64,000 bases of DNA, taken from assembly GCA_034521145.1 (NCBI GenBank), contig JAXHMX010000002.1, positions 65,670 to 129,669 of the forward strand, given 5' to 3'. The stretch is from Fidelibacterota bacterium (GTDB taxonomy: Bacteria; Fidelibacterota; Fidelibacteria; Fidelibacterales; Fidelibacteraceae). A program made the position numbers and the translations under genes. The stretch's first letter is position 1. Each line of letters opens with the position of its first letter. Under the pieces are notes generated by a model that had not been told where the DNA came from, ran no database searches, and was given only the letters and a program-made list of their open reading frames with translations. This document shows, piece by piece, positions 7,575 to 49,059 of the stretch.

Positions 7575-7688
7575 TTGGGACGGGATATACATGATAATGT
7601 TTCAGACAAGATAATCCCATCCTGAATCCCCCTTGGGGCAGGATATATATGATCATATTTCAGACACAATATCAGGGTTACCGGGGCA
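7575..7688. repeat. tandem imperfect direct repeat, 2 x 57 bp
   Basis: Units 7575-7631 and 7632-7688 both start CTTGGG...GGATATAyATGATmATrTTTCAGACA and are ~75% identical. They lie directly upstream of repeat copy A. Confidence 0.7.
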
Positions 7689-7700
7689 ATTTTATAAATG

Positions 7701-8038
7701 ATCTTCCTATGCCGCATCGCGACGACGCGTGAAAAAAATCCTATAAGTGAGCGTAAAAAAATGCAGCGGTTGAGCGGAGCGAGACTTTTCTGCATTTTAG
7801 CGAACGCAGAGGATTTTGCAGTCCGCCAGTTGGCGGAAGAGAAGCGGAGGTTTTTCTTTTGCTTACTCCCTTGGGGATCCCCTTGGGATTTTCTTTGGAC
7901 CAGCAAAGAAAAGGAAGAGACTTTTCCGTGCGAAAAGAACCACATTCCGGGCATCTTATTTATTTAAAAAAAGAAATAGTATTTAATTTTATAATATTCA
8001 ATTAATTATAACGATTTTAGTCTCATTTTCTACCATTA
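7701..8038 (+). repeat. interspersed ~340-bp noncoding element, copy A (full length)
   Basis: About 90% identical over ~338 bp to 23714-24052. Reverse-complement copies lie at 37444-37682 and 42150-42528. Reading frames are not conserved between copies (indels are not multiples of 3). Hairpins TCCGCC-AGTT-GGCGGA, GGGGATCCCC and CTTTTC-CGTGCG-GAAAAG are conserved. Confidence 0.85.
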
Positions 8039-8068
8039 ACCCTAAAATGATATTATTCTGTTTGCGGG

Positions 8069-11230: not shown

Positions 11231-11316
11231 CGCCCGGGTGGCGGAATTGGCAGACGCGCATGGTTGAGGGCCATGTAACTGTTAAAGTTGTGCGGGTTCA
11301 AGTCCCGCCCCGGGTA
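11231..11316 (+). tRNA. tRNA-Leu (anticodon GAG)
   Basis: Manual fold: acceptor GCCCGGG/CCCGGGT, anticodon stem CATGG/CCATG with loop TTGAGGG, long type-II variable arm, T-loop TTCAAGT, discriminator A. CCA is not encoded. Confidence 0.85.
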
Positions 11317-23424: not shown

Positions 23425-23477
23425 ACACAATTTATACGTAAAAAGATCCTTACGGTAAATAACGTTTTTAGTCTAAG

Positions 23478-23707
23478 AACTTGAGCCAAGTTTTTGTACA
23501 CGTCATCAACCCATCTGCTCAACTATCAAATAAATATAACCAACAATATCTTGGGTCAAGTTTTCAAACAACCCACACCTCACGATCAAACATAAATCAT
23601 TGTATTAAATAGAGATATACTTACCAAGTGTTCTTGTGAATTGTAACAATAACGTACATTATACCGAATAATTGTCATTTATTGTCCGTAATAACTTGAG
23701 CCAAGTT
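23478..23707. repeat. three copies of a 6-3-6 palindrome: AACTTGAGCCAAGTT (23478-23492 and 23693-23707) and the variant ATCTTGGGTCAAGTT (23548-23562)
   Basis: Exact 15-bp palindromes 215 bp apart. The segment immediately abuts repeat copy B (start 23714) and contains AACGTTTTTAGTCT, which resembles the element's 3' end. Confidence 0.6.
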
Positions 23708-23713
23708 CCTGGT

Positions 23714-24052
23714 ATCTTCCATGCCGCATCGCGACGACGCGTGAAGAAAATCCGATACGTGAGCGTAAAAAAATGCAGCGGTTGAGCGGAGCGAGGCCTT
23801 TCTGCATTTTAGCGAACGCAGAGGATTTTGTAGTCCGCCAGTTGGCGGAAGAGAAGCGGAGGTCTTTCTTTTGCTTATCCCTTGGGGATCCCCTTGGGAT
23901 TTTCTTTGGACAGGCAAAGAAAAGTTAGGGACTTTTCCGTGCGAAAAGAACCATATTTCGGGCGTCTTTTTATTGGAAAAACAAGAAATCGTATTCAGTT
24001 TTATGATATTCAATTAATTATAACGATTTTAGTCTCATTTTCTATCATTAAG
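23714..24052 (+). repeat. interspersed ~340-bp noncoding element, copy B (full length)
   Basis: See copy A. Collinear with 7701-8038. Confidence 0.85.
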
Positions 24053-24156
24053 CCACAATACGGATACATCTCCCGTTTCTGTGCAACGAAAAATATTGCG
24101 CTCCGGAGTCCGGAATGTATTGAGAATGGAAGTTTTTCTTTCCCGCTTATTGCAAT

Positions 24157-27766: not shown

Positions 27767-28423
27767 TCAAGCTTGTGGATCTTGTAAATAAATGTATTCC
27801 ACCAAGGTGTTTTTTGAATGGCGTTCCGTTTCCTCCCCTAAAAAACAGACCTTGTGAACGGCCCGGGTGAATGCAACATAAAAGACCCGTTTCTCCTCGG
27901 CTGTTTCCTCATTCTGCGCACTTTTTTTCAAGCCGTATAAAATACCGGATCTTTCCCTTCCGGGAAGCGAGAGTGACATTTCAAAATAACCGTCCTTACG
28001 TCCGAACTGAAAACTTTCGGTACCGGAACCGCCGGAAGCATTCATCTCCGGCATGACCACCACCGGAAATTCCAGTCCCTTTGCCTTATGCACGGTCAGA
28101 ATATGTACTTTCGCCGTCTCGGAGTATAACGCCTGTGCTTCGTTTTTATTATCATTCACGCGGTAATGGAAATGCTCGCGTATCGCACGTAAATTGCTGC
28201 CTTTCCGTACCATTCCGCGAATAATATTGATGGCTTTGTCCATATTCGCCAGACGCTGGCTGGGCATTAGTTCGCTGACATATCCCAGTTCCCGGTCATT
28301 TTCCTCAATGATGTGCGTCAGCAGTATATCCGCGGACAGGTACCGGCTCCTGCCGATCCATGAAAGTATCAGTTCTCTCTGTTTTTTGCAGGAGGGGGTC
28401 CGCTGCCTTCCCCATCGCTTCAA
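27767..28423 (-). pseudogene. addA: UvrD/AddA helicase C-terminal domain fragment
   Basis: Helicase motifs V/VI (VHILTVHKAKGLEFPVVVM, YVAFTRA). Confidence 0.65.
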
Positions 28424-29439
28424 AGAGATAGACCTTTATCGCGGTCCGCCAGCAGATGGATCTTCGGGTCCGGCAGAGCGATCAGGGGACTCCGGAGAAG
28501 TCCGGCCAGCGCATGATCATCAAAAGGATTGTCAAGTACGGACAGAAAATGAAAAACATCTCTGCTGACACCGCTCTGATAAAAACCGCGTCCGCCGATA
28601 ATACTGACCGGAATATCCAGCATACGGAAAGCCTGAAGATAATCTTCAATATGCGTGAATTTTCGCAGCAATACACCGATCAGGGGTTTATCTTCGCTCT
28701 CTTCCATTCCGGCCTGCTGAAGTTCCCGTAGTTTTTCACGCACACAAAAAGCCGCGTGCTGCGCCGGAAGATAAACACCGGATTTCCTCTCTTCCGCACT
28801 GCACCAATGTGTCTCTACGGCGGGAGAAAGTCGGTTTTTTACCTTTCCTTTATAAACCGTGGGGCCAAAAGCTTCATAGGCCTTTTTTTCTTCCCCTTTC
28901 TCCGGCATGATATCCGTTCCGCCGAAAGTTCGCATTAATGCCCTTATCAATAAAATCCGGCGATGAATGGTAATTATCATTGAAATCCAGAATCTCACCG
29001 TTCTGTTGACGGACCAGTTTTCGGCATCGTCCATGACCGTTACATCTGCATTATTGAACCGGTAGATCGATTGCTTGCGGTCCCCTACGATAAACAGCTT
29101 AATGGCATCCGCATCTTTCGCGGATCGAAAGATCGATCTGATGATATCCCAGCGCACCGGATTCGTATCCTGAAATTCATCCACCATAATGATGCCGGCA
29201 CCGTCTCGCAAGGGTTTTTCGAATATCCGGATTATCCTGCAGTAATTGATGCGTAAAAAGAATAATATCGGAAAAATCCAGGACATTTTTCTTTTTACGC
29301 ACATCCAGATAAGAGGCATCAAAATCCCTGTACAGATCGAACAGTTTCCGCAACAGGGGAATAATACGATAATCTTCGGGTCCCGGTGTCGCCATAAGAT
29401 CTTCGATTGTATACTGTTTTTCAGCGTTTCAAACCACAT
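28420..29439 (-). pseudogene. addA: UvrD/AddA helicase fragment (motifs II-III)
   Basis: IIMVDEFQDTNP and VGDRKQSIYRF. The first ~75 aa are out of frame. A separate frame (29177-29395) carries LDFSDIIL...NPDIRK. Confidence 0.65.
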
Positions 29440-29855
29440 AACAGCTTCTTTTTTTCATCGGACCAGTTCTCTTTCACACCGTTGATCTTTTGCCGGTATT
29501 CATCCTTACCGGTTACCAGTGGACTGTTCCGTATGACCCGGGTCAGAAAAGCGGACCTGAATTCCAGGGGGTCCTCATGCTGAATTTGGATATAATTTGC
29601 ATACATCTGCTGCAGCAGCTTATACAGTTTATCGTTTTTATCCGCACATCCGTGTTCCGCATTTTTGCACAAGGATTCAAAACCGCCGATAATAATATCT
29701 TCATCGTAGTCGGGCGTATAGCGCTTCAGCCAGTCCCGCCATATATCCTCATCACGCTGCGAGCTGAACTGGAACAAGTGTCCCTGAAGGATTTCCCGGT
29801 GTTGGTAAATGCCGGTAATATTCTTTCGGATCCGGTAAACGCTCATGTTTTCCAA
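29421..29855 (-). pseudogene. addA: AddA domain 1B fragment
   Basis: Collinear fragment between the Walker-A fragment and motif II. Confidence 0.45.
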
Positions 29856-34170: not shown

Positions 34171-35013
34171 ATGCTAAAGCCCGGTGTCATTCCATCTGCG
34201 GAACCCAGAATCAGGGTGGGGATCGTACTTCCAAAGGATGATCAGAAAAAGATAACTGCCTTTTTTTCCAACATGTGTGATTTTGAAATGGCAGTCGACA
34301 CGCTAACGTTTTCGACTTGCGAAGTCCCGAGTATTCTTTTTAAAGCCGAAAATAATGGTATTACTTTCACGATCGACGGAAAACAATATGATAAAGTGCA
34401 TAAGGTTGTTTTCCGGCCGATAAAGGAAACCGCCTATATCACGCTGGACCCTGTGGTATCGGGCCGTGAATTCCACTGGCGAAAATATATCAGTGTCAGA
34501 GTGCCGGAAAAAGTGGAGATCTTCCTTTCCGGAGGAAGTCTGCTGGTCGTTAATGAACTCCCGCTGGAAAAATACCTGTCCTGTGTGGCAACTTCCGAAA
34601 TGGGCGCCGCCTGTCCGCCCGCACTGATCGAATCACAAACGGTCGTGGCTCGCTCCTGGATGCTTGCCAATGTTGAACAAAAGCATGTCCATCTCGGTAT
34701 TGATGTCTGTAACGACGACTGCTGTCAGCGATATCAGGGATTGAATAATCTCACCGAAAACAGTAAGAAGGGCGCGGAATCCACCCGCGGCAGGGTCATC
34801 ACGTATAAGAATGAGATATGTGATGCGCGTTATTCGAAATCCTGCGGCGGAAAGATGGAGGTTTTTGAAAACCTCTGGGAAGACACTCCGCTGCCCTATA
34901 TGCAGAACATTCCCGATATGCCGGAAGGGCATACTGTTCCGGATCTGACAATAGAGGAAAATGCCAGAAAATGGATCATGTCCACACCCAGGGAAGCTTT
35001 CTGCAGTTCTTGA
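34171..35013 (+). CDS. SpoIID/LytB-domain protein, N-terminal fragment (frameshifted gene)
   Basis: LEKYLSCVATSEMGAACPPALIESQTVVARSWML matches the SpoIID core. It ends prematurely at ~34990. Confidence 0.65.
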   Translation: MLKPGVIPSAEPRIRVGIVLPKDDQKKITAFFSNMCDFEMAVDTLTFSTCEVPSILFKAENNGITFTIDGKQYDKVHKVVFRPIKETAYITLDPVVSGREFHWRKYISVRVPEKVEIFLSGGSLLVVNELPLEKYLSCVATSEMGAACPPALIESQTVVARSWMLANVEQKHVHLGIDVCNDDCCQRYQGLNNLTENSKKGAESTRGRVITYKNEICDARYSKSCGGKMEVFENLWEDTPLPYMQNIPDMPEGHTVPDLTIEENARKWIMSTPREAFCSS

Positions 35014-35494
35014 TACCGTACCGGAAAACACATTGAAAAAATATATCGGTGCCTGTGATGAAGAAGGGGAATACTTTCGCTGGACCGTAGAGATCAGTAA
35101 TGGCGATCTATCTGCCAATCTCCGGGATAAACTCGGAATTGAGGTCAAAGATGTACTGGACATGCAGATCCGGAAACGCGGCGGAAGTGCCAGATCCCTG
35201 GAATTAGTGATCGTCTATCTTGATTTCAACGATAAACAGCATGAAACCGTTGTTTATAAAGATTACAATGCGCGCCTTGTGCTTCATCCGAAATTTCTCT
35301 ACTCCTCCGCGGTGATCATCGATAAGATTGGAAGCGGAGAGATCCCGAAACGTTTTATCTATCACGGCGCGGGATGGGGACACGGTGCGGGCATGTGCCA
35401 GATCGGCGCTCTCGGCATGTCACTGAAAGGGTATTCCACCGAAGAGATCCTGGAACACTATTATCCGGGAAGCACATACACGAAGATCTATTAA
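34961..35494 (+). CDS. SpoIID/LytB-domain protein, C-terminal fragment
   Basis: GHGAGMCQIGALGMSLKGYSTEEILEHYYPG (SpoIID C-terminal signature) in the +1 frame relative to the upstream fragment. Confidence 0.65.
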   Translation: MPENGSCPHPGKLSAVLDTVPENTLKKYIGACDEEGEYFRWTVEISNGDLSANLRDKLGIEVKDVLDMQIRKRGGSARSLELVIVYLDFNDKQHETVVYKDYNARLVLHPKFLYSSAVIIDKIGSGEIPKRFIYHGAGWGHGAGMCQIGALGMSLKGYSTEEILEHYYPGSTYTKIY

Positions 35495-35506
35495 TAAGGA
35501 TGATCT

Positions 35507-36565
35507 ATGAGTAAAAAAAATGTTGAGAACAAAAAACGCCATCCTTTAAGCTGGGTTCCGTCTCTCTACTTCATTGAGGGTGTTCCTTATACCATCGTGA
35601 TGGTCGTTTCCGTCGTTATGTACAAAATGCTGGGTATCTCCAACACCGATATTGCCCTCTACACCAGTTTGCTCTACCTCCCCTGGGTGATCAAACCCCT
35701 CTGGAGTCCTGTAGTTGACAATCTGAAAACTAAGCGCTGGTGGATTTTGATCATGCAGTTCATTCTCGGTGTGTTATTCGACTGTATTGCTCTTACCATT
35801 CCCACAACAAATTTTTTCCGGATCACGATCGCGATCTTATGGCTCATGGCTTTTACCTCCGCAACACATGATATTGCTGCGGACGGTTTTTATATGATCG
35901 GTCTTAAAGAAGGGGATCAGGCTCTTTATAACGGCATACGTTCCGCATTTTACCGGGTGGCAATGCTTACCGGCCAGGGAGTTTTCGTTATCCTGGTCAG
36001 CCTGCTGATCAATGCATCCGGTATGGACAAGGTCACTATTGAGGTCAATGCGGTTCCGAAGGACGGAAAAGCGCTGATCGAGGTCCCCGAAGAAGTGGCA
36101 ATACAGGAACAGCCGGGCGAGATGTATCTGATCAATCACCCGGATGAGTTGAATATCCCTATTGAACGTGTCGATAAGGCATATGCGGATTCCGTGATCA
36201 AATCTGCCCGGGAATGGAATACCGCCCAAGGTCAGCCGGACCCGGATGAAAGCCAGAGAGAAAAAAGAGTACGCTTAAGTAAGACAGAGGATGACGGAAA
36301 TCTGGAAAAAGAAGTGCGGCCGAAAAAATTCGAGGCCTGGATCCGTTCAACTTTCGGTGTGGAAAAACCCCCGGTCACCGATTATGAGGGGAATCTGGCT
36401 ATTATCTATTTTCATCTTTCGAAGAAACCCGAAACGGATAAACCGGTCATTGTTACCTTTGGCCAGGATCGCGGTGACAGGAGCATCAAACTGGTTGAGG
36501 GCATGCGTTTTGAATTCGACGCGGGAAAACTGGAACAAACCGGTTATGGCCGTTATTCAGCTTGA
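35507..36565 (+). CDS. AmpG-like MFS permease, N-terminal fragment with a large hydrophilic insertion
   Basis: The N-terminal 6 TM resemble AmpG/PAT-family MFS (LSWVPSLYFIEGVPYTIVMVV, LYLPWVIKPLWSPVVD). Residues ~165-350 are a soluble insert. Confidence 0.6.
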   Translation: MSKKNVENKKRHPLSWVPSLYFIEGVPYTIVMVVSVVMYKMLGISNTDIALYTSLLYLPWVIKPLWSPVVDNLKTKRWWILIMQFILGVLFDCIALTIPTTNFFRITIAILWLMAFTSATHDIAADGFYMIGLKEGDQALYNGIRSAFYRVAMLTGQGVFVILVSLLINASGMDKVTIEVNAVPKDGKALIEVPEEVAIQEQPGEMYLINHPDELNIPIERVDKAYADSVIKSAREWNTAQGQPDPDESQREKRVRLSKTEDDGNLEKEVRPKKFEAWIRSTFGVEKPPVTDYEGNLAIIYFHLSKKPETDKPVIVTFGQDRGDRSIKLVEGMRFEFDAGKLEQTGYGRYSA

Positions 36566-37391
36566 TAAAAAACTAGATGAACCCAGCAGTGCCCATTTTG
36601 ATGCCAAATCCGGAAATGTAAAAATGGCCTGGTCTGTTCTGTTTTTCTGCCTTTCCGGCATGTTCTTTGTTTTCTATGTGGCGCATCGTTTTACTTTGCC
36701 AAAGGTGGAGGTTGAACGTGTTGAGCGTTCTCCCGGAGAAGCATTAAAGGATTTTCTGGCCACTTTTACCACTTTTTTCAAGAAAAACAATATCGGACTT
36801 GCACTTGCTTTCTTATTGCTATTCCGGCTTGCGGAATCCCAGCTGGTCAAATTGTCCGCTCCGTTCATGCTTGACACCCGTGAAGTAGGCGGTCTGGGAT
36901 TGACGGCCGGTGAATACGGACTGACTTACGGTACGATCGGACTGATTTTTCTCACCCTGGGAGGCATACTGGGAGGCCTGGCAGTGTCTAAAAACGGATT
37001 GAAGAAATGGATCTGGTGGTTCGCTATTGCGATCAATATTCCCAATGCCGTCTATATCTATCTTTCCTATGCACAGCCTTCAAGTCTTGCCATTATCGCT
37101 CCGGCCGTTGCCTTTGAAACCTTCGGCTACGGTTTCGGTTTTACAGCCTACATGATGTATATGATCTACTTTTCACGCGGGAAATATAAAACATCGCATT
37201 ATGCTATCTGTACGGCATTTATGGCTCTCGGCATGATGCTTCCCGGTATGATCAGCGGCTGGCTTCAGGAACTTATCGGCTATCAGCACTTCTTTATCTG
37301 GGTCATGATCGCTACGATCCCGGGATTTATTCTCCTCAAATTCCTGAAGATCGATCCGAAGTTCGGAAAGAAAGTGAAACAAACGGAATAA
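36291..37391 (+). CDS. AmpG-like MFS permease, C-terminal fragment (true junction ~36555)
   Basis: C-terminal 6 TM in the +1 frame. The first ~88 aa of this track ORF are out-of-frame overlap with the upstream fragment. Confidence 0.6.
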   Translation: MTEIWKKKCGRKNSRPGSVQLSVWKNPRSPIMRGIWLLSIFIFRRNPKRINRSLLPLARIAVTGASNWLRACVLNSTRENWNKPVMAVIQLDKKLDEPSSAHFDAKSGNVKMAWSVLFFCLSGMFFVFYVAHRFTLPKVEVERVERSPGEALKDFLATFTTFFKKNNIGLALAFLLLFRLAESQLVKLSAPFMLDTREVGGLGLTAGEYGLTYGTIGLIFLTLGGILGGLAVSKNGLKKWIWWFAIAINIPNAVYIYLSYAQPSSLAIIAPAVAFETFGYGFGFTAYMMYMIYFSRGKYKTSHYAICTAFMALGMMLPGMISGWLQELIGYQHFFIWVMIATIPGFILLKFLKIDPKFGKKVKQTE

Positions 37392-37411: not shown

Positions 37412-37444
37412 AAAGCCTTTCCGGATCCCGGAAAGGCTTTTTTA
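37412..37444 (+). terminator. intrinsic terminator after the ampG-like gene
   Basis: AAAGCCTTTCCGG-ATC-CCGGAAAGGCTTT followed by TTTT. Confidence 0.8.
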
Positions 37445-37682
37445 GCTTAATGCTAAAAAATAAGATTAAAACGTTATAAATAATAGAATGTCAGGGGAAT
37501 ACAGGGAATTTGATTTTATTGAACTAATAATAAAAAATTCCTGTCCGAAATGTGGTTCTTTTCACATGGAAAAGTCCCGGGGGGATCCCCTTGGGAGAAG
37601 CAAAAGAAAGACCGCCGCTTCTCTTCCGCCAACTGGCGGACTACAAAATCCTCTGCGTTCGCTAAAATGCAGAAAGGCCTTG
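37444..37682 (-). repeat. interspersed element, copy C (inverted, 5'-truncated, ~240 bp)
   Basis: The reverse complement matches element positions ~85-340. It lacks the first ~80 nt and the TTTTCTTTGG...CAAAGAAAA module. The 3'-end homology (TTATTTATAACGTTTTAATC...GCATTAAGC) runs into the terminator. Confidence 0.75.
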
Positions 37683-37908
37683 ATCTGCCGATTCGAATAA
37701 TTGTTCGCCGGTATGTGAATAAAACTTACGGGAACCGTTCAGAAGACAGGGAAAAAGCAGAGGGAGTACACGGGTACCGGACTTATTTCCGGATCCGGAA
37801 TATTACGTAACCTTACAGGAAAAATCCCATGAAGACAGAGGCATTTATCTTCGTGATTCACAAACGTAACTTCTTGACAGATGGCAAATTAAGCCTTATC
37901 TTTCCAAG

Positions 37909-42063: not shown

Positions 42064-42090
42064 AAAAAACCGGGATCCCGGTTTTTTTAT
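42064..42090 (+). terminator. intrinsic terminator after mtaB
   Basis: AAAAAAACCGGGATCCCGGTTTTTTT. Confidence 0.8.
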
Positions 42091-42149
42091 TTTCAGCGCT
42101 TTTTTTCGGGATCTATTACGTAATTGATTCCTGATGGTAATTTTGTAAG

Positions 42150-42528
42150 CATAAAATCGTTATAATTAATTGAATATCATAAATCTGAATACGATTTCAT
42201 TGTTTTTCCAATAAAGATGGACAAAATGCTTTCAAATGTGGTTCTTGTGAGACAAAAGAATGGAAAAAAGAGTAAACAACGTTACTACTGTAATATTTGA
42301 CATTGCATCTGTCGCAAATGAAAATAGCCTACAAGCTAGATGAATCTTCCTTGTCCAAGGGAAAGGAAGCAAAAGAAAGACCGCCGCTCCTCTTCCGCCA
42401 TTGGCAGACTACAAAATCCTCTGCGTTCGCTAAAATGCAGAAAGGTCTCGCTCCGCTCAACCGCTGCATTTTTTTACGCTCTCTTATCGGATTTTCTTCA
42501 CGCGTCGTCGCGATGCGGCATGGAAGAT
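42150..42528 (-). repeat. interspersed element, copy D (inverted, central module replaced)
   Basis: The reverse complement matches the element's 5' ~165 nt and 3' ~100 nt. The central ~75 nt is replaced by an unrelated ~120-nt segment (42245-42345). The TCCGCC/GGCGGA hairpin is degraded (CCGCCATTGGCAGA). Confidence 0.75.
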
Positions 42529-42544
42529 CTTGTATAAATCAGCC

Positions 42545-43513
42545 TCACCTTTTTACCATTAACCTGTAATTCAGTTCTTTTGCCTCTTCTTTCCCGGTGG
42601 TCCGGAATAAATATGCAAATGCCAATGCGCCGGCACTGATATTGGCAATGAAGGCGGACCAGAAAACACCTTCGAGCGCAAAGAAGTGCGCACCCAGTAA
42701 AGCCAGCGGTACATACAGGCCGAGCGTCCGCAGCATGGAAAAGAATACCGCGGGGTGCGGCTTGTTCATACCGTTGAAACTCTGCGTGCTCAGTCTCACC
42801 AATCCCTGAAAGCCATAACTGAATCCGACAATAAGCAAATATTTTACCGTTACATCGATAACGTTGGGATCACTGCTGAAAACAGAGGCAATGCTCTTGC
42901 CAAAAAGCAGAACGATAATAAAAACTAACGTTCCCCATGTAAGGGAAAAACCTGCTGCGTATTTATAAGCTTTATACATTCGCGGGAATTTTAATTTACT
43001 GTAATTTTGTCCGATAAATATTATAAGCACAGAACCAAGTGCATTAATGACCATCAGGGCGAACATCTCGATTCGCGAGGCAACCCCGAAACCCGCGACG
43101 GCTTCTTTTCCGAAATCGGAAATTATTCTTGTGACCACTCCTATGGAAACGGGAGTGATCAGCAAACTCAGTGCGGCGGGACCCCCAATATACAGGACTT
43201 TCCACCATGTTGAGAAGATCTCGCGGAAATGACCGACTTTTACAGTGAGCAATTTTTCTCTTCCGATCAATATGATCAAAATAATGCCAAAACTGACGCT
43301 CCGGGAAATGACGGTTGCAAGTGCTGCGCCTTTTATTCCAAGTTCGGGAAAAGGACCGTATCCGAATATAAACAGCGGATCAAGGATAACATTCACGAAA
43401 GCGGAGATCACCATGATCATACCGGGCACAAACGTATCACCGGTCGCTCTGACAATATTATTTCCGACCATTGGCATCAACACAAAAGGAACACCAAAAT
43501 ACCAGACACTCAT
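42545..43513 (-). CDS. MATE-family efflux transporter, C-terminal fragment
   Basis: TM7-12 of a NorM/DinF-like MATE protein. Confidence 0.7.
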   Translation of the reverse strand: MSVWYFGVPFVLMPMVGNNIVRATGDTFVPGMIMVISAFVNVILDPLFIFGYGPFPELGIKGAALATVISRSVSFGIILIILIGREKLLTVKVGHFREIFSTWWKVLYIGGPAALSLLITPVSIGVVTRIISDFGKEAVAGFGVASRIEMFALMVINALGSVLIIFIGQNYSKLKFPRMYKAYKYAAGFSLTWGTLVFIIVLLFGKSIASVFSSDPNVIDVTVKYLLIVGFSYGFQGLVRLSTQSFNGMNKPHPAVFFSMLRTLGLYVPLALLGAHFFALEGVFWSAFIANISAGALAFAYLFRTTGKEEAKELNYRLMVKR

Positions 43514-43517
43514 ATAG

Positions 43518-43922
43518 TCAGTGAATATATCCGATTATTTCCCGTTGGGCACCGAGAGCCATAAAAAGCGGACGAATTGTCAGTAATCCCAGAGTGACGA
43601 ACAATATGACAACGGAGATACCCAAAAAAATAGCACGGCTGGCGATCATTCTGACCTCATGGCGGTCCGCGACAATAAAATTCCGCGATACGAGCGAACT
43701 CGTTCCAATACCGATACCCAGGGAAAGGCTGTTGATGAACATAATGACCGGAAAACAGAAACTGATCGCCGCAAGTTGATTTACCCCGAGCTTACCGACA
43801 AAATAGGTGTCTACAAGGTTGAATATCACCATACCCAGCATACCGAATATCATGGGCCATGTCAGGCTGATCAGTTGTTTTGCAATATTTCCCTGTGTGA
43901 GATTCCTGCTTTTACGATCCAT
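43518..43922 (-). CDS. MATE-family efflux transporter, N-terminal fragment
   Basis: TM1-4 (LISLTWPMIFGMLGMVIFNLVDTYFVG). A 1-nt indel at ~43505 in a T-run separates it from the C-terminal fragment. Confidence 0.7.
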   Translation of the reverse strand: MDRKSRNLTQGNIAKQLISLTWPMIFGMLGMVIFNLVDTYFVGKLGVNQLAAISFCFPVIMFINSLSLGIGIGTSSLVSRNFIVADRHEVRMIASRAIFLGISVVILFVTLGLLTIRPLFMALGAQREIIGYIH

Positions 43923-44696: not shown

Positions 44697-47093
44697 TTGA
44701 GAAGTAAATATGCCCGTGTCAGGATCAGAAAAAATGCCCAAAGCAAAAATGTGAAGATTTCGTCGGACCTCAAACCCGAAATAAGTGATCCCCTGATAGA
44801 AAAATGGCAGTCCCTTCTGGATATTACCGCAAAAACCGCAAAAATCCCCGCTGCACTTATTATGAAACTGAATGAAGACAATATTGAGGTCTTCCTGGAA
44901 AGTCATACGCCGGGAAATCCATACAAAAAGGGAGAAAAAGCGGAACTGAGATACGGACTGTATTGTGAAACGGTGATCGGTACTCAGAAGGATCTGCTTA
45001 TTCCCGATGCGAGAAAGGATGCCTTATGGAGAAAAAACAATCCGGACATTGATCTGAACATGGTCGCTTATATGGGTTTTCCCATTAATTGGCCGGACGG
45101 AGAAGTTTTTGGTACGATCTGTCTTCTTGACAACAAAGAAAACCACTTCAGCGATTATTACAGAGAACTCCTGGACCACGTCAGGGAAAATATTGAAAAT
45201 GACCTTAATTCGCTTCTTATAAACAATAAATTGAGAGAACGCCTTAAAGAACTAAACTGCTTATATGAATTACAGAACATCTTCGAGAAAAAATTTTCCG
45301 AAACCGAAACGCTTGCCAGATCATTGTTAACAATAATACCGCCGGCAATGCAGTATCCCGACCGTACCTGTGTCCGTTTAACCCTGAACGGAAAGGAATT
45401 CCTCTCAAAGGATTTCCAGGAAACCCCCGTAAAGATATCGCAGAATATCCGGACCGGCAGCATGAAAAAGGGACAGCTTGAGGTCTTTTATAAAACCGGA
45501 AAGAAAGAAAGCTCTGCGGTTTCCTTTTTAGAAGATGAAAAAAAACTTCTTGCTGCCATTTCCCATAATATCGGTCAATATTTGGCCCGTATCCAAACAG
45601 AGAACGAACTGAAAAAAAGTGAAGCCTTTCAGAAAACGATCATAGAAAGTTCTCCTTTGCCCATATTCTCTCTCGATACCGAAGGAAGGGTCCTAAGCTG
45701 GAATCCTGCCTCCGAGAAGGTATTCGGCTGGACATTTGAAGAAATAAAAGGAAAAACACTGCCGATCGTCCAAAAAGAGAAGAAACACGAATTTCATTCC
45801 TTATTGAACAGAGTGATCACTGAAGGAGCTTTTTCGGGTAAAGAGCTTGTGCGCCAAAAGAAAAACGGACAACTTATTGACATCAGCCTTTCTGCGGCAC
45901 CTATCCACGGTCCGGATAATAAGGTCATTGGAATAATGTCGACCCTGGAAGATATCACCGACAGTAAAAAATTGGAAAAAGCCATTATCGAAAGCCGAAA
46001 TAATCTGCGCATCACTCTGGATTCCATCGGAGACGGTGTTATTACCACTGATAAGAACGGCATGGTCAACGGCATCAATCCCGTGGCTTCGGAGCTGACC
46101 GGTTTCACATTACCTGAAGCTAAGGGGAAACCCCTTGCTGATGTTTTCTCTATTATGAATGAAAAAACGGGAGAAGCCGTAGCAAACCCCGTACAGAAAG
46201 TCTTAAGAACCGGCAAGATCGTTGGCCTTGCAAATCATACCAAACTTATTTCAAAAAACGGCAAAGAACATCAGATTGCCGATTCCGCTTCTCCCATCAT
46301 AAATGACAGAAAGGAAATTACCGGTGTTGTGCTGGTCTTCCGTGATGTCACCAAAGATTATCACATCCGCCGGGCATTGATCGAAAGTGAAAATAAATTC
46401 CGTTCACTTGTAGATCAGGCGGCGGAGATGCTATTCCTTCATGACCTGAACGGAAATATTATTGATGTCAACAGGGCAGCTGAGATCAATACCGGGTATA
46501 CAAAAACGGAATTGAAAAAAATGAAGGTTTCCGATATTGATCCCGGTTCATCCAAACGCAAAGACGAAAATGCCCACTGGAAACCTTTGCGTCCGGAAGA
46601 AGATGCAGTCACAATTGAAGCCGCGCATCGGCGTAAAGACGGCACTGTCTATCCGGCAGAGATCACTCTTTCCAAAGTGACACTCAGCGGTAAAAACTAC
46701 ATTCTTGCTCTTGCACGCAATATAACGGAACGCAAACAGGCGGAAGAAAAATTAAAAGAAAGCGAAGAAAAATACCGGCTTATCGTTGAAAATGCCAATG
46801 ACGGTATCGAGATCACCCAGCAGGATAAGATCATTTTTGCCAATGCGCGATTTGCTGAAATGCTGGGATATACCATTGATGAACTCAAGAACATTCCCTT
46901 CAAAGATATATTTACCGAAACGGCTATACGGGAACTCTACGAACGCCGGGAAAAACGCCTGGCCGGACAAAGGGAACAGCGCCAATATGAAACCACTTTC
47001 AGGAAAAAGAACGGTTCGCATATTCATGCCAATGTGAATTATGAAATAATCAATTACAAAGGGGAACCGGCAACTTTTGCCGATCATCCGTGA
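44697..47093 (+). CDS. sensor protein, GAF + multiple PAS domains (N-terminal part of a hybrid histidine kinase)
   Basis: GAF domain and at least 4 PAS/PAC units. The ORF ends in a TTTT run. Deleting one T fuses it in frame to the next ORF (…GEPATLPIIRDITEQKK…). Confidence 0.8.
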   Translation: MRSKYARVRIRKNAQSKNVKISSDLKPEISDPLIEKWQSLLDITAKTAKIPAALIMKLNEDNIEVFLESHTPGNPYKKGEKAELRYGLYCETVIGTQKDLLIPDARKDALWRKNNPDIDLNMVAYMGFPINWPDGEVFGTICLLDNKENHFSDYYRELLDHVRENIENDLNSLLINNKLRERLKELNCLYELQNIFEKKFSETETLARSLLTIIPPAMQYPDRTCVRLTLNGKEFLSKDFQETPVKISQNIRTGSMKKGQLEVFYKTGKKESSAVSFLEDEKKLLAAISHNIGQYLARIQTENELKKSEAFQKTIIESSPLPIFSLDTEGRVLSWNPASEKVFGWTFEEIKGKTLPIVQKEKKHEFHSLLNRVITEGAFSGKELVRQKKNGQLIDISLSAAPIHGPDNKVIGIMSTLEDITDSKKLEKAIIESRNNLRITLDSIGDGVITTDKNGMVNGINPVASELTGFTLPEAKGKPLADVFSIMNEKTGEAVANPVQKVLRTGKIVGLANHTKLISKNGKEHQIADSASPIINDRKEITGVVLVFRDVTKDYHIRRALIESENKFRSLVDQAAEMLFLHDLNGNIIDVNRAAEINTGYTKTELKKMKVSDIDPGSSKRKDENAHWKPLRPEEDAVTIEAAHRRKDGTVYPAEITLSKVTLSGKNYILALARNITERKQAEEKLKESEEKYRLIVENANDGIEITQQDKIIFANARFAEMLGYTIDELKNIPFKDIFTETAIRELYERREKRLAGQREQRQYETTFRKKNGSHIHANVNYEIINYKGEPATFADHP

Positions 47094-49059
47094 TATCACT
47101 GAACAAAAGAAGGCAGAACAAACCCTGATCGAAAGCGAACAAAAGTACCGCCGCCTTTTCGAAACGATGTCCCAGGGAGTGGTCTATCAGGATGCGGAGG
47201 GGAAAATATTTTCCGCCAATCCCGCCGCGCAACGCATTCTCGGTCTGAATCTGGACCAGATGAAAGGCAGAACGTCCATTGACCCGAGATGGAAGTCTGT
47301 TGATAAAAACAAGAACGAACTCCCCGGAAATGAACATCCTGCAATGCGCGCATTGAAAAGCGGGGAAAAAGTGGAAAATTTCATTCAGGGTATCTTCAAT
47401 CCGCGGCTGAACGATTATGTGTGGATCAACGTTAGCTCCACACCTTTGTACCATAAAAATGGAAGTCGCCCTTATCAGGTTTACTCAACATTCCTGGATA
47501 TTACCGAAAAAAGAAAGACGGAATTACGGCTTCAGGAAAGCAACCGCAAATTCAATACCATGATCGATAATCTGAATGGCGTTGTCTACCGCTGCAAGCT
47601 TGATCAGGCATGGACAATGGAATATATGAGTAATGCCGTAGAAGAGATCAGCGGGTATCCGGCATCCGATTTTATCAATAATGCGCGACGTACTTATGAT
47701 TCCATCATTTTTGCAAAGGACCGGAAACGCGTTCAGGACGAGATCCGGGAATCGGTGAAACGGAAAAAGCCGTACACCGTGGAATACCGTATCCATACAG
47801 CTAATGACGTAATACGCTGGGTGTGGGAGCGTGGAAGATACATTTACCACGATAAGGATACAATTCTGCTTGAAGGTTTTATCGTTGATATTACGGGTCA
47901 TAAAGAAGCAGAAAAAGAATTACGGAAAGCAAAAGAAAAAGCGGAAGAGAGCGATCGTCTGAAATCCGCGTTTCTGGCAAATATGAGTCATGAGATCCGA
48001 ACGCCCATGAACAGTATTATGGGCTTTCTGAACCTTCTGCAGAAGCCGGAGCTTTCCGATGATAAAAAAGACAACTACATCGATATCGTTAAAAAAAGCA
48101 GTGTGCGGCTTCTCAATACCATTAATGATATTATTGAAATAGCTAAAATCGAATCCGGACATGTTGATATTCATCCCGAAAATATCCATATCAGCAGACT
48201 CCTTGACTATTTTTATCATTTCTTTAAACCGGAAACGGACCAGAAAGATCTGCAATTCCGTTTGAAGAATACGGTTGGAAAAGACAGGGATGTTATCAGA
48301 ACCGACAGGAACAAACTTGAATCCATATTGAACAATTTCATAAATAATGCCCTGAAATTCACGGATAACGGTTTTATTGAGCTGGGTTGCAGCATTAAAA
48401 ATGATCATATTGTTTTCTATGTTGCCGACAGCGGAACCGGGGTCTCTCCGCAAAAAATTGAAGCGATCTTTGACCGGTTCGTTCAGGCTGATATGGCGAT
48501 AAGCCGTTCATATGAAGGATCGGGACTGGGGTTGTCTATCGCCAGAGCCTATGCAGACATGCTTGGGGGAAAAATACATGTTGAATCCACACCCGGCCGT
48601 GGAAGTACATTTTATATTTCACTTCCTTTGGACACCGCAGGATCGAGGAACACAACAGATGACATAAAAAGATCATCTGCAGCGGTCCGGGGCAGCGGGA
48701 AAAATAAAACCCTCCTGGTTGCAGAAGATGACGACGCCAGCTTCATCTATATCGAGGCGGTTCTTCAAACAAAGAACTTCACCGTTTTACGTGCCGAAAA
48801 TGGCAAAGAGGCGGTAAAACTCTGCAAAGAAGATCCGAATATCGATCTTGTTCTTATGGATCTGAAAATGCCTGTTATGAACGGTTATGAAGCTTCAGAA
48901 AAGATACGTGAGTTCAATAAGAGCATACCCATTGTCGCACAAACCGCCTATGCGCTGCAGGGTGACGAAAAAAAGGCCCTGGCGGCCGGATGCGACGATT
49001 ATGTCACTAAGCCGATAACGAGTGAAGATCTGTTAACATGTATAGGGAAATATCTATAA
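47077..49059 (+). CDS. PAS-PAS-HisKA-HATPase_c-REC (C-terminal part of the same hybrid histidine kinase)
   Basis: H-box SHEIRTPMNSIMGF, and N, G1/G2 boxes. Receiver domain with DD...D...K (LLVAEDDDASFIY...LVLMDLKMP). Confidence 0.85.
   Translation: MPIIRDITEQKKAEQTLIESEQKYRRLFETMSQGVVYQDAEGKIFSANPAAQRILGLNLDQMKGRTSIDPRWKSVDKNKNELPGNEHPAMRALKSGEKVENFIQGIFNPRLNDYVWINVSSTPLYHKNGSRPYQVYSTFLDITEKRKTELRLQESNRKFNTMIDNLNGVVYRCKLDQAWTMEYMSNAVEEISGYPASDFINNARRTYDSIIFAKDRKRVQDEIRESVKRKKPYTVEYRIHTANDVIRWVWERGRYIYHDKDTILLEGFIVDITGHKEAEKELRKAKEKAEESDRLKSAFLANMSHEIRTPMNSIMGFLNLLQKPELSDDKKDNYIDIVKKSSVRLLNTINDIIEIAKIESGHVDIHPENIHISRLLDYFYHFFKPETDQKDLQFRLKNTVGKDRDVIRTDRNKLESILNNFINNALKFTDNGFIELGCSIKNDHIVFYVADSGTGVSPQKIEAIFDRFVQADMAISRSYEGSGLGLSIARAYADMLGGKIHVESTPGRGSTFYISLPLDTAGSRNTTDDIKRSSAAVRGSGKNKTLLVAEDDDASFIYIEAVLQTKNFTVLRAENGKEAVKLCKEDPNIDLVLMDLKMPVMNGYEASEKIREFNKSIPIVAQTAYALQGDEKKALAAGCDDYVTKPITSEDLLTCIGKYL

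Follow-up and report, generated by a model that had tools for sequence, protein, structure and literature searches.

Four copies of a repeat, A to D, are scattered through the window, the 64-kb stretch of DNA analysed here, and each is located at or near the 3' end of a gene. Copy C adjoins the terminator of an MFS/AmpG-like gene, and copy D lies inside the last codons of matE. An earlier note on this DNA had reported four related segments near these places, with A and B about 90% identical over their whole length and C and D on the opposite strand. Repeat searches, profile searches and alignment bear out each of these points. The repeat search paired 7709-7891 with 23721-23903 at 90% identity (A and B) and gave inverted matches of 83-97% identity at 37571-37688 and 42402-42528. 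A 33-mer taken from the core of the repeat matches the window four times at no more than one mismatch; the expectation from 100 dinucleotide shuffles is 0.00. Profile searches of the 64 kb return exactly these four copies and no others, the match of nhmmer to B spanning 23659-24068 with E = 1e-116.

The note placed the copies correctly but drew their boundaries too narrowly; they are wider once their ends are counted. Copy A (about 7676-8042, + strand) begins with the inner remnant of a 5' terminal inverted repeat (TIR) at about 7679-7703, followed by a conserved 118-nt 5' core at 7700-7817 that matches our covariance model with 134.9 bits. The 3' half of the core (7818-7943) contains three purine/pyrimidine hairpins and two optional GC palindromes, and the AT-rich tail (7944-8042) carries the 3' TIR (match 8042->8000) and ends ...CCATTAACCC. 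Neither the outer 5' TIR nor a target-site duplication (TSD) is recognisable at A. Copy B (about 23660-24054, + strand), which like A is full-length in the alignment, has a 5' TIR that has diverged; its core lies at 23712-23829 and its 3' TIR, ending ...TCATTAAGCC, at 24011-24054. Copy C (37444 to about 37690, - strand) is a 5'-truncated fragment. About 150 nt are missing from its 5' side; what remains is the 3' arm of the central hairpin, together with the core's 3' half, the tail and the 3' TIR (37444-37486). Copy D (42128-42565, 438 bp, - strand) has both TIRs, the 5' one at 42526-42565 and the 3' one at 42128-42172, and a core at 42413-42529. Its limits were set by comparison with an empty site in a relative. 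The other intact copy, L004, measures 399 bp (1120-1518 of its contig).

The host belongs to the Fidelibacterota, since a Fidelibacterota MAG, GCA_046482575.1, encodes proteins that share 91% and 89% identity with MtaB and Nnr of the window. Over 60% of its length, Nnr also shares 72% identity with a protein on a 1.63-Mb contig of the Ca. Neomarinimicrobiota MAG JAXHNS01, assembly GCA_034520235.1. Fidelibacterota (Marinimicrobia, SAR406) form a large phylum known nearly wholly through metagenomes, and Fidelibacter multiformis is a cultured relative. Where else does the repeat occur? Exact-pattern scans for the core covered 185,579 species genomes (GTDB), JGI metagenomes and IMG/VR. They found three copies in one MAG, JAXHNS (loci L001 and L002), and one metagenome locus, L004, present on two JGI contigs; L003 is a cut copy. 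The scan of the IMG/VR viral contigs found no core, and BLAST against plasmids and phages gave no match to the element. When run over 145 kb, the covariance model of the core, R1, recovered only the seven cores used to build it. Copies L001 and L002b are truncated at the 3' side, unlike C. The two copies at L002 (5168-5800) stand head to tail with their cores 367 bp apart, and the second has no recognisable 5' TIR. A literature search returned no paper describing mobile elements of Fidelibacterota.

Does the repeat move? Three contigs from relatives are syntenic with the window over 1-26 kb and 34-44 kb. L005 and L009 come from the closest MAG, which is 87-90% identical to the window in nucleotide sequence, and L010 from the JAXHNS MAG, which is 76.6% identical over mostly coding DNA. 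At site A the window has the element and flanking repeats, where in L009 and L010 the transglutaminase-like and STAS genes are 125 bp apart. Site B occupies about 730 bp in the window against 34 bp in L010. At site C the MFS terminator of L005 directly abuts the sequence that flanks copy C in the window. At site D the mtaB-matE gap is 483 bp in the window and 83 bp in L005. Profile searches of L005, L009 and L010 found no element in these syntenic loci. The element is thus mobile: it is present in the window and missing at all four orthologous sites of the nearest relatives. The comparison also dates the insertions, the copies being missing from a relative at about 87-90% nucleotide identity.

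The two intact copies are bordered by short direct repeats. Copy D lies between 8-bp TSDs, TGAATTAC and TCAATTAC, which match at 7/8 positions. Read on the + strand, the left one (42120-42127) is GTAATTGA, present singly, as TAATTCA, at the empty site in L005; the right one (42566-42573) is GTAATTCA and falls within the last matE codons. L004 has CTTTTAAT on both sides, a perfect 8/8 duplication. The duplications at L004 and D differ in sequence (CTTTTAAT vs TGAATTAC), and both are AT-rich. No TSD is recognisable at A and B, whose 5' ends are rearranged, or at the truncated copy C.

The earlier note saw no terminal inverted repeats. That claim fails: the element ends in imperfect TIRs of about 40 nt with the pattern GGCTTAATGGTAA-N4-TGAGGCTA-...-GTTATAA. 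The pattern comes from an alignment of nine ends, namely the 5' ends of D, L001, L002a and L004 and the reverse-complemented 3' ends of A, B, C, D and L004. When an HMM was built from the 3' ends only, the inverted 5' ends of L002a and D were among its three best non-self matches. The third, top-ranked, is a remnant upstream of B (23478->23459, E = 2.3). Across copies the cross-end score lies 4.3 standard deviations above shuffled sequences (z = 4.3). Within a single copy, 14/28 positions match in D (P = 0.026) and in L004 (P = 0.015), compared with 9.4-9.7 ± 1.8 in random windows. Local alignment of each 5' TIR with the sequence downstream is too insensitive in DNA this AT-rich, and it failed to pick up the 3' TIRs already known from D and L004; the TIRs were therefore assessed by the profile and fixed-register tests instead. 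Given the profile matches, the z of 4.3 and the 14/28 matches within copies, we regard the TIRs as real but poor.

The note had offered two readings, a structured small-RNA family or a non-autonomous IS200/605-like element. Of the second, the non-autonomous mobile part agrees with the empty sites, TSDs and TIRs, while the IS200/605 flavour is contradicted by the latter two. A PATE of the IS200/IS605 type, transposed in single-stranded form by the Y1 transposase TnpA, would have prominent hairpins and no transposase of its own, as the element does, and copy D happens to come after TTAC. TSDs and TIRs are, however, foreign to IS200/IS605, the left flanks differ between copies (CTTTTAAT vs TGAATTAC) and the IS605-related Rfam models give no match. 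A PATE is thus very improbable here.

Insertion of copy D has altered a gene. The MatE protein of the window ends ...ELNYRLMVKR*, whereas that of L005 ends ...KLNY*, so the 5' TIR of copy D now provides the matE stop codon (42545-42547) and lengthens the protein by six residues (RLMVKR). The note had all copies in intergenic DNA at gene ends; the placement at gene ends holds, but D is an exception to the rest, because its insertion took the place of the matE stop codon. The element thereby accounts for changes at gene ends, the six-residue MatE extension among them. Two short-read contigs from Logan, L006 and L007, whose MtaB is identical to that of the relative represented by L005, both end 11 nt past the mtaB stop, just before the site that copy D occupies in the window. 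This could be a repeat-induced assembly break or a coincidence. The element may break short-read assemblies of such genomes.

The surroundings of A and B are more complex. Directly 5' of copy A, at 7575-7690 (+ strand), are two tandem units of 57-58 nt (TTGGGRCRGGATATAYATGATMATRTTTCAGACA...) that duplicate target-region sequence. Each unit, like the 3' flank of A (8046-8060), is similar to GGATATGGTGATAATGTTCTG, which the empty site of L009 and L010 contains once, and the target region is therefore present three times. A single 8-bp duplication does not account for this. Upstream of copy B (23437-23505, 23550 and 23692-23707) we find an inner 5' TIR-like sequence, GTAAAAAGATCC, an inner 3' TIR-like sequence, ATAACGTTTTTAGTCT, and the 5' TIR once more, and AACTTGAGCCAAGTT occurs twice, 213 bp apart. 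These TIR-like fragments are probably the remnant of another insertion, earlier or nested.

Small differences in the window need to be read with care. In alignment with L005 and L009, 59 isolated gaps of one nucleotide appear in the window, many within genes. Single-nucleotide indels (for example at about 35012, 36517, 43520 and 47082) split the MFS/AmpG-like gene (627 aa in L005 vs three ORFs), matE, a PAS histidine kinase gene (>1300 aa) and a UvrD-like helicase gene; the ORFs concerned are at 27767-29855, 34961-37391, 42545-43922 and 44697-49059. These isolated indels are either assembly errors or widespread pseudogenes. Because the genes of the window carry so many of them, single-base indels between copies of the element are weak evidence.

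What does the element encode? The note judged it noncoding, with short ORFs that are not conserved, and saw no adjacent transposase; our searches agree on both counts. No reading frame is open across copies, and the variable sites of the core are spread over the three codon positions as 8/8/6, without periodicity. A search of 5.8 billion proteins with the six-frame translations of the core, aimed at ORFs called over the element or at a transposase with the same first codons, yielded 1942 word candidates, of which none reached E <= 1. Neither hydrophobicity nor a conserved frame is seen in the short ORFs (MPHRDDA*, MQRLSGARPFCILANAEDF...); a type I toxin-antitoxin repeat was rejected on these grounds. 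Among the genes on either side of each copy, and in the remainder of the window, Pfam scans recognised housekeeping families only, and no transposase lies in the window or beside any copy. TIR profile searches over 145 kb found no autonomous partner with the same ends.

Could the copies be independent internal-deletion derivatives of a full-length IS, with the core as its 5' UTR and first transposase codons? An ATG does follow an A-run in the core (TAAAAAAATGCAG). The 3' parts are also mosaic, the window, JAXHNS and L004 types differing by whole modules, a pattern that independent deletions would produce. Yet no core frame matches any of the 5.8 billion proteins. In L004, which has an 11-nt insertion, and in the MAG copies the frame stays open for no more than 16-19 codons, and the variable sites lack codon periodicity. 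Moreover, the TIRs, which the parent would also need, are far less conserved than the core. We consider such an origin improbable, though conservation of the core could come in part from a conserved region of a parent IS rather than from a function of the core itself.

An RNA-guided or RNA-mediated element is the least credible of the readings considered. The core is long and structured, as a bridge-RNA or omega-RNA-like guide would be; the 5' truncation of copy C would suit a SINE-like retrotransposed RNA, and TSDs are expected from target-primed reverse transcription as well. But no recombinase, TnpB/IscB or reverse transcriptase gene lies near any copy, no loops co-vary with the flanks, and in L001 and L002b the truncation affects the 3' side. 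Since the core stays constant while the targets and the ends of the element vary, it cannot serve as a guide RNA.

The core is the most constant part of the element. Over about 115 aligned nucleotides, it is 87-96% identical in every pair among seven copies from three hosts. Pairwise identity falls to 61-95% in the 3' half of the core and to 19-87% in the tail and 3' TIR. For the 5' TIR it is 40-72% between distinct lineages or rearranged copies and 90% for L001 and L002a, which come from the same MAG. The core thus changes at a lower rate than the remainder of the element, and also than host genes, which are about 77% identical.

The core is predicted to fold into a short helix, P1 (CTTCACG/CGTGAAG), and a bulged hairpin of 95 nt (AAAATCC..GCGT..AAAATGCAG-tip-CTGCATTTT..ACGC..GGATTTT) that does not appear in the earlier note. 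Folding z-scores are -6.2 (L004) and -3.7 (A). Every copy retains the 28 pairs of the central hairpin (28/28), and the five one-sided changes within it lead to G·U or C-G pairs, with the exception of one in D. L004 carries an 11-nt insertion at the tip of the hairpin that adds a perfect 7-bp stem, and a 39-nt hairpin insert in the loop of P1. In the 3' half there are three purine/pyrimidine hairpins, named Ha, Hc and Hd. One A-U to U-A swap, L004 and L001 vs L002b, was read in Hc directly from the sequences. Statistics over the whole alignment give no covariation signal, which with eight near-identical copies is uninformative rather than negative: 87% of cells are paired, compared with 45-57% for slid partners, a value equal to that of the shuffle control, and three pairs show double changes where 1.8 are expected.

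The predicted fold favours one strand. In 7/8 copies the + strand folds more stably than the - strand, by 7-17 kcal/mol, because the hairpin contains 3-4 G·U pairs. This bias points to an RNA, or to single-stranded DNA of the + strand, as the form in which the structure would act.

Not all of the structure is constant. The note listed three conserved stem-loops, and two of these, TCCGCC-AGTT-GGCGGA and GGGGATCCCC, prove to be optional: they are present in A, B and C, degenerate or absent in D and found in none of the four copies outside the window (0/4). Their absence from all four of those copies marks them as optional inserts. TCCGCCAGTTGGCGGA and GGGGATCCCC are GC palindromes situated in loops. 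Copy D, without the GGGGATCCCC hairpin, has an extra module of about 75 nt in common with L002a (GCTATTTTYATTTGCGACRGAT...; window 42250-42330, L002 5395-5445) that all other copies lack. The family is thus a mosaic of optional modules. Short, perfect GC-rich palindromes, TCCGCCAGTTGGCGGA, CCTTGGGGATCCCCTTGGG and CCCCGAATTCTCGGGG, are present or absent as units (A 7833-7848 and 7868-7888; L004 1273-1288). Terminators of neighbouring genes, at 42070-42081 and 37416-37436, also have stems centred on GGATCC. Such GGATCC-centred palindromes are not significantly over-represented in the window: 4-5 occur where about 1.6 are expected, a count that 6-8 of 100 shuffles attain.

How might the core be transcribed? 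The note took a TATAAA or TATACA box upstream of the conserved 5' end as a hint of independent transcription. The box does keep its position in five copies; a sigma-70 scan detected no promoter on the + strand. The box sits in the 5' TIR and is mirrored in the 3' TIR, where the same scan scores the mirror as an inward promoter on the other strand (TAGAAA-16-TATAAT). No convincing terminator was found in the element; the sole terminator-like site is the optional GGGGATCCCC palindrome. The orientation of the copies is suggestive in another way: 5/7 point in the same direction as the upstream gene. The core of D must be on the matE mRNA, since the matE stop codon lies in the TIR and the shared terminator beyond the element. 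These two observations favour read-through, with the core as a 3'-UTR module. That the core acts as an RNA is a guess; an independent small RNA is possible, and read-through is favoured.

The same data bear on the other reading in the note, an independently transcribed family of structured small-RNA genes, copied by duplication, for which the likeness of the ends and the flanking repeats would be incidental. Such genes would explain the stable, strand-biased fold and a core that is invariant across hosts, unpaired nucleotides included. They would also explain why a -10-like box (TATAAA, TATACA or TGTAAA) stands at a fixed distance upstream of GATCTTC in 5/7 copies. The box belongs to the TIR, however, with its mirror image at the 3' end, and presence and absence at four orthologous sites, 8-bp TSDs and inverted ends show transposition. 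Rfam gives no support either. Searched against Rfam 15 at the gathering threshold, the window yields only a tRNA (11232-11316), and permissive searches of copy A and L004 give matches at chance level; the Rfam check that the note proposed has thus turned up no known family. Nor does covariation exceed the shuffle control among the eight near-identical copies. As an explanation of the repeats, a family of small-RNA genes is unlikely, if slightly less so than derivation from an IS by deletion. A small RNA carried as the cargo of a MITE is compatible with the explanation that we prefer.

That explanation is that the repeats are probably a non-autonomous DNA transposon (MITE) of about 400-440 bp, apparently limited in public data to a small clade of Fidelibacterota (Marinimicrobia). 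The description of a MITE applies because mobility, TSDs and TIRs are combined here with a lack of coding capacity and of a transposase: the element is smaller than 500 bp, has no ORF and is polymorphic for presence and absence. Three facts count against it. The TIRs are only about 50% matched, far below those of typical MITEs; A and B, with rearranged 5' ends, lack a clean TSD; and no autonomous partner sharing these ends turned up in 145 kb. The family is newly defined, and the type of element is ordinary and already known. The analysis gives the poorly studied Fidelibacterota a MITE family whose boundaries and target duplication are defined.

We envisage that the MITE would be moved in trans by a transposase, presumably of the DDE type, encoded elsewhere in the genome, with cuts staggered by 8 bp at AT-rich targets. 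The 118-nt core, with P1 and the 95-nt hairpin, would be under constraint beyond the needs of TIR-based mobility. It would most likely act as an RNA from the + strand of the element, transcribed either by read-through of the upstream gene, which is inevitable for D, or from a weak promoter in the 5' TIR, or by both routes. As for its role, we can guess at a cis-acting structured 3'-UTR module that stabilises the transcript or directs its processing, or at a module needed for propagation of the element. A stronger version of this idea takes the core to be a structured RNA with a function of its own, representing a new class and kept by purifying selection in all copies, with the MITE as the vehicle that carries this RNA gene or module through Fidelibacterota genomes. 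Dispersal of a functional RNA would account for a core conserved better than the transposition signals; we think this reading doubtful. If conservation of the core does reflect function, the family would clearly exemplify a transposon that spreads a structured RNA module.

How does the element compare with known systems? IS200/IS605 elements make no target duplication, have no TIRs and insert beside a fixed short motif. PATEs of this type resemble our element in being non-autonomous, hairpin-rich and placed at gene ends; they differ in that our element has TSDs and TIRs and lacks a fixed target tetranucleotide. The IS1595 and ISL3 families make 8-bp duplications and have ends that start with GG. 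Judged by these general features only, the element shares with them an 8-bp AT-rich duplication and ends starting with GG(C/G), and the two families are leads only. Multi-copy structured noncoding RNAs of bacteria in Rfam are similar to the predicted RNA in size (about 120-250 nt), multiple hairpins, tips of variable length and invariant loop nucleotides, and different in that the predicted RNA has no Rfam 15 match and is embedded in a mobile element. Searches of plasmids, phages and Rfam revealed no sequence similarity to described elements.

The closest parallel is with prokaryotic MITEs. Neisseria Correia elements, the enterobacterial ERIC/IRU elements and Bacillus cereus bcr1 are MITEs with structured transcripts. 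As a class, prokaryotic MITEs are shorter than 500 bp, have TIRs and direct repeats that fade with age, insert at AT-rich targets and give rise to structured transcripts; Coxiella QMITE2 is one example (PMC10969869). Our element is likewise below 500 bp, AT-rich, bounded by TIRs and without an ORF. Its 8-bp TSDs correspond to the direct repeats of 7-9 bp, fading with age, that accompany such elements. It too inserts at AT-rich gene ends, is predicted to form stable stem-loops if transcribed and has altered one C-terminus. It departs from them in two respects. Its TIRs, about 50% matched, are unusually poor, and its 118-nt core surpasses those TIRs in conservation across hosts that are about 77% identical.
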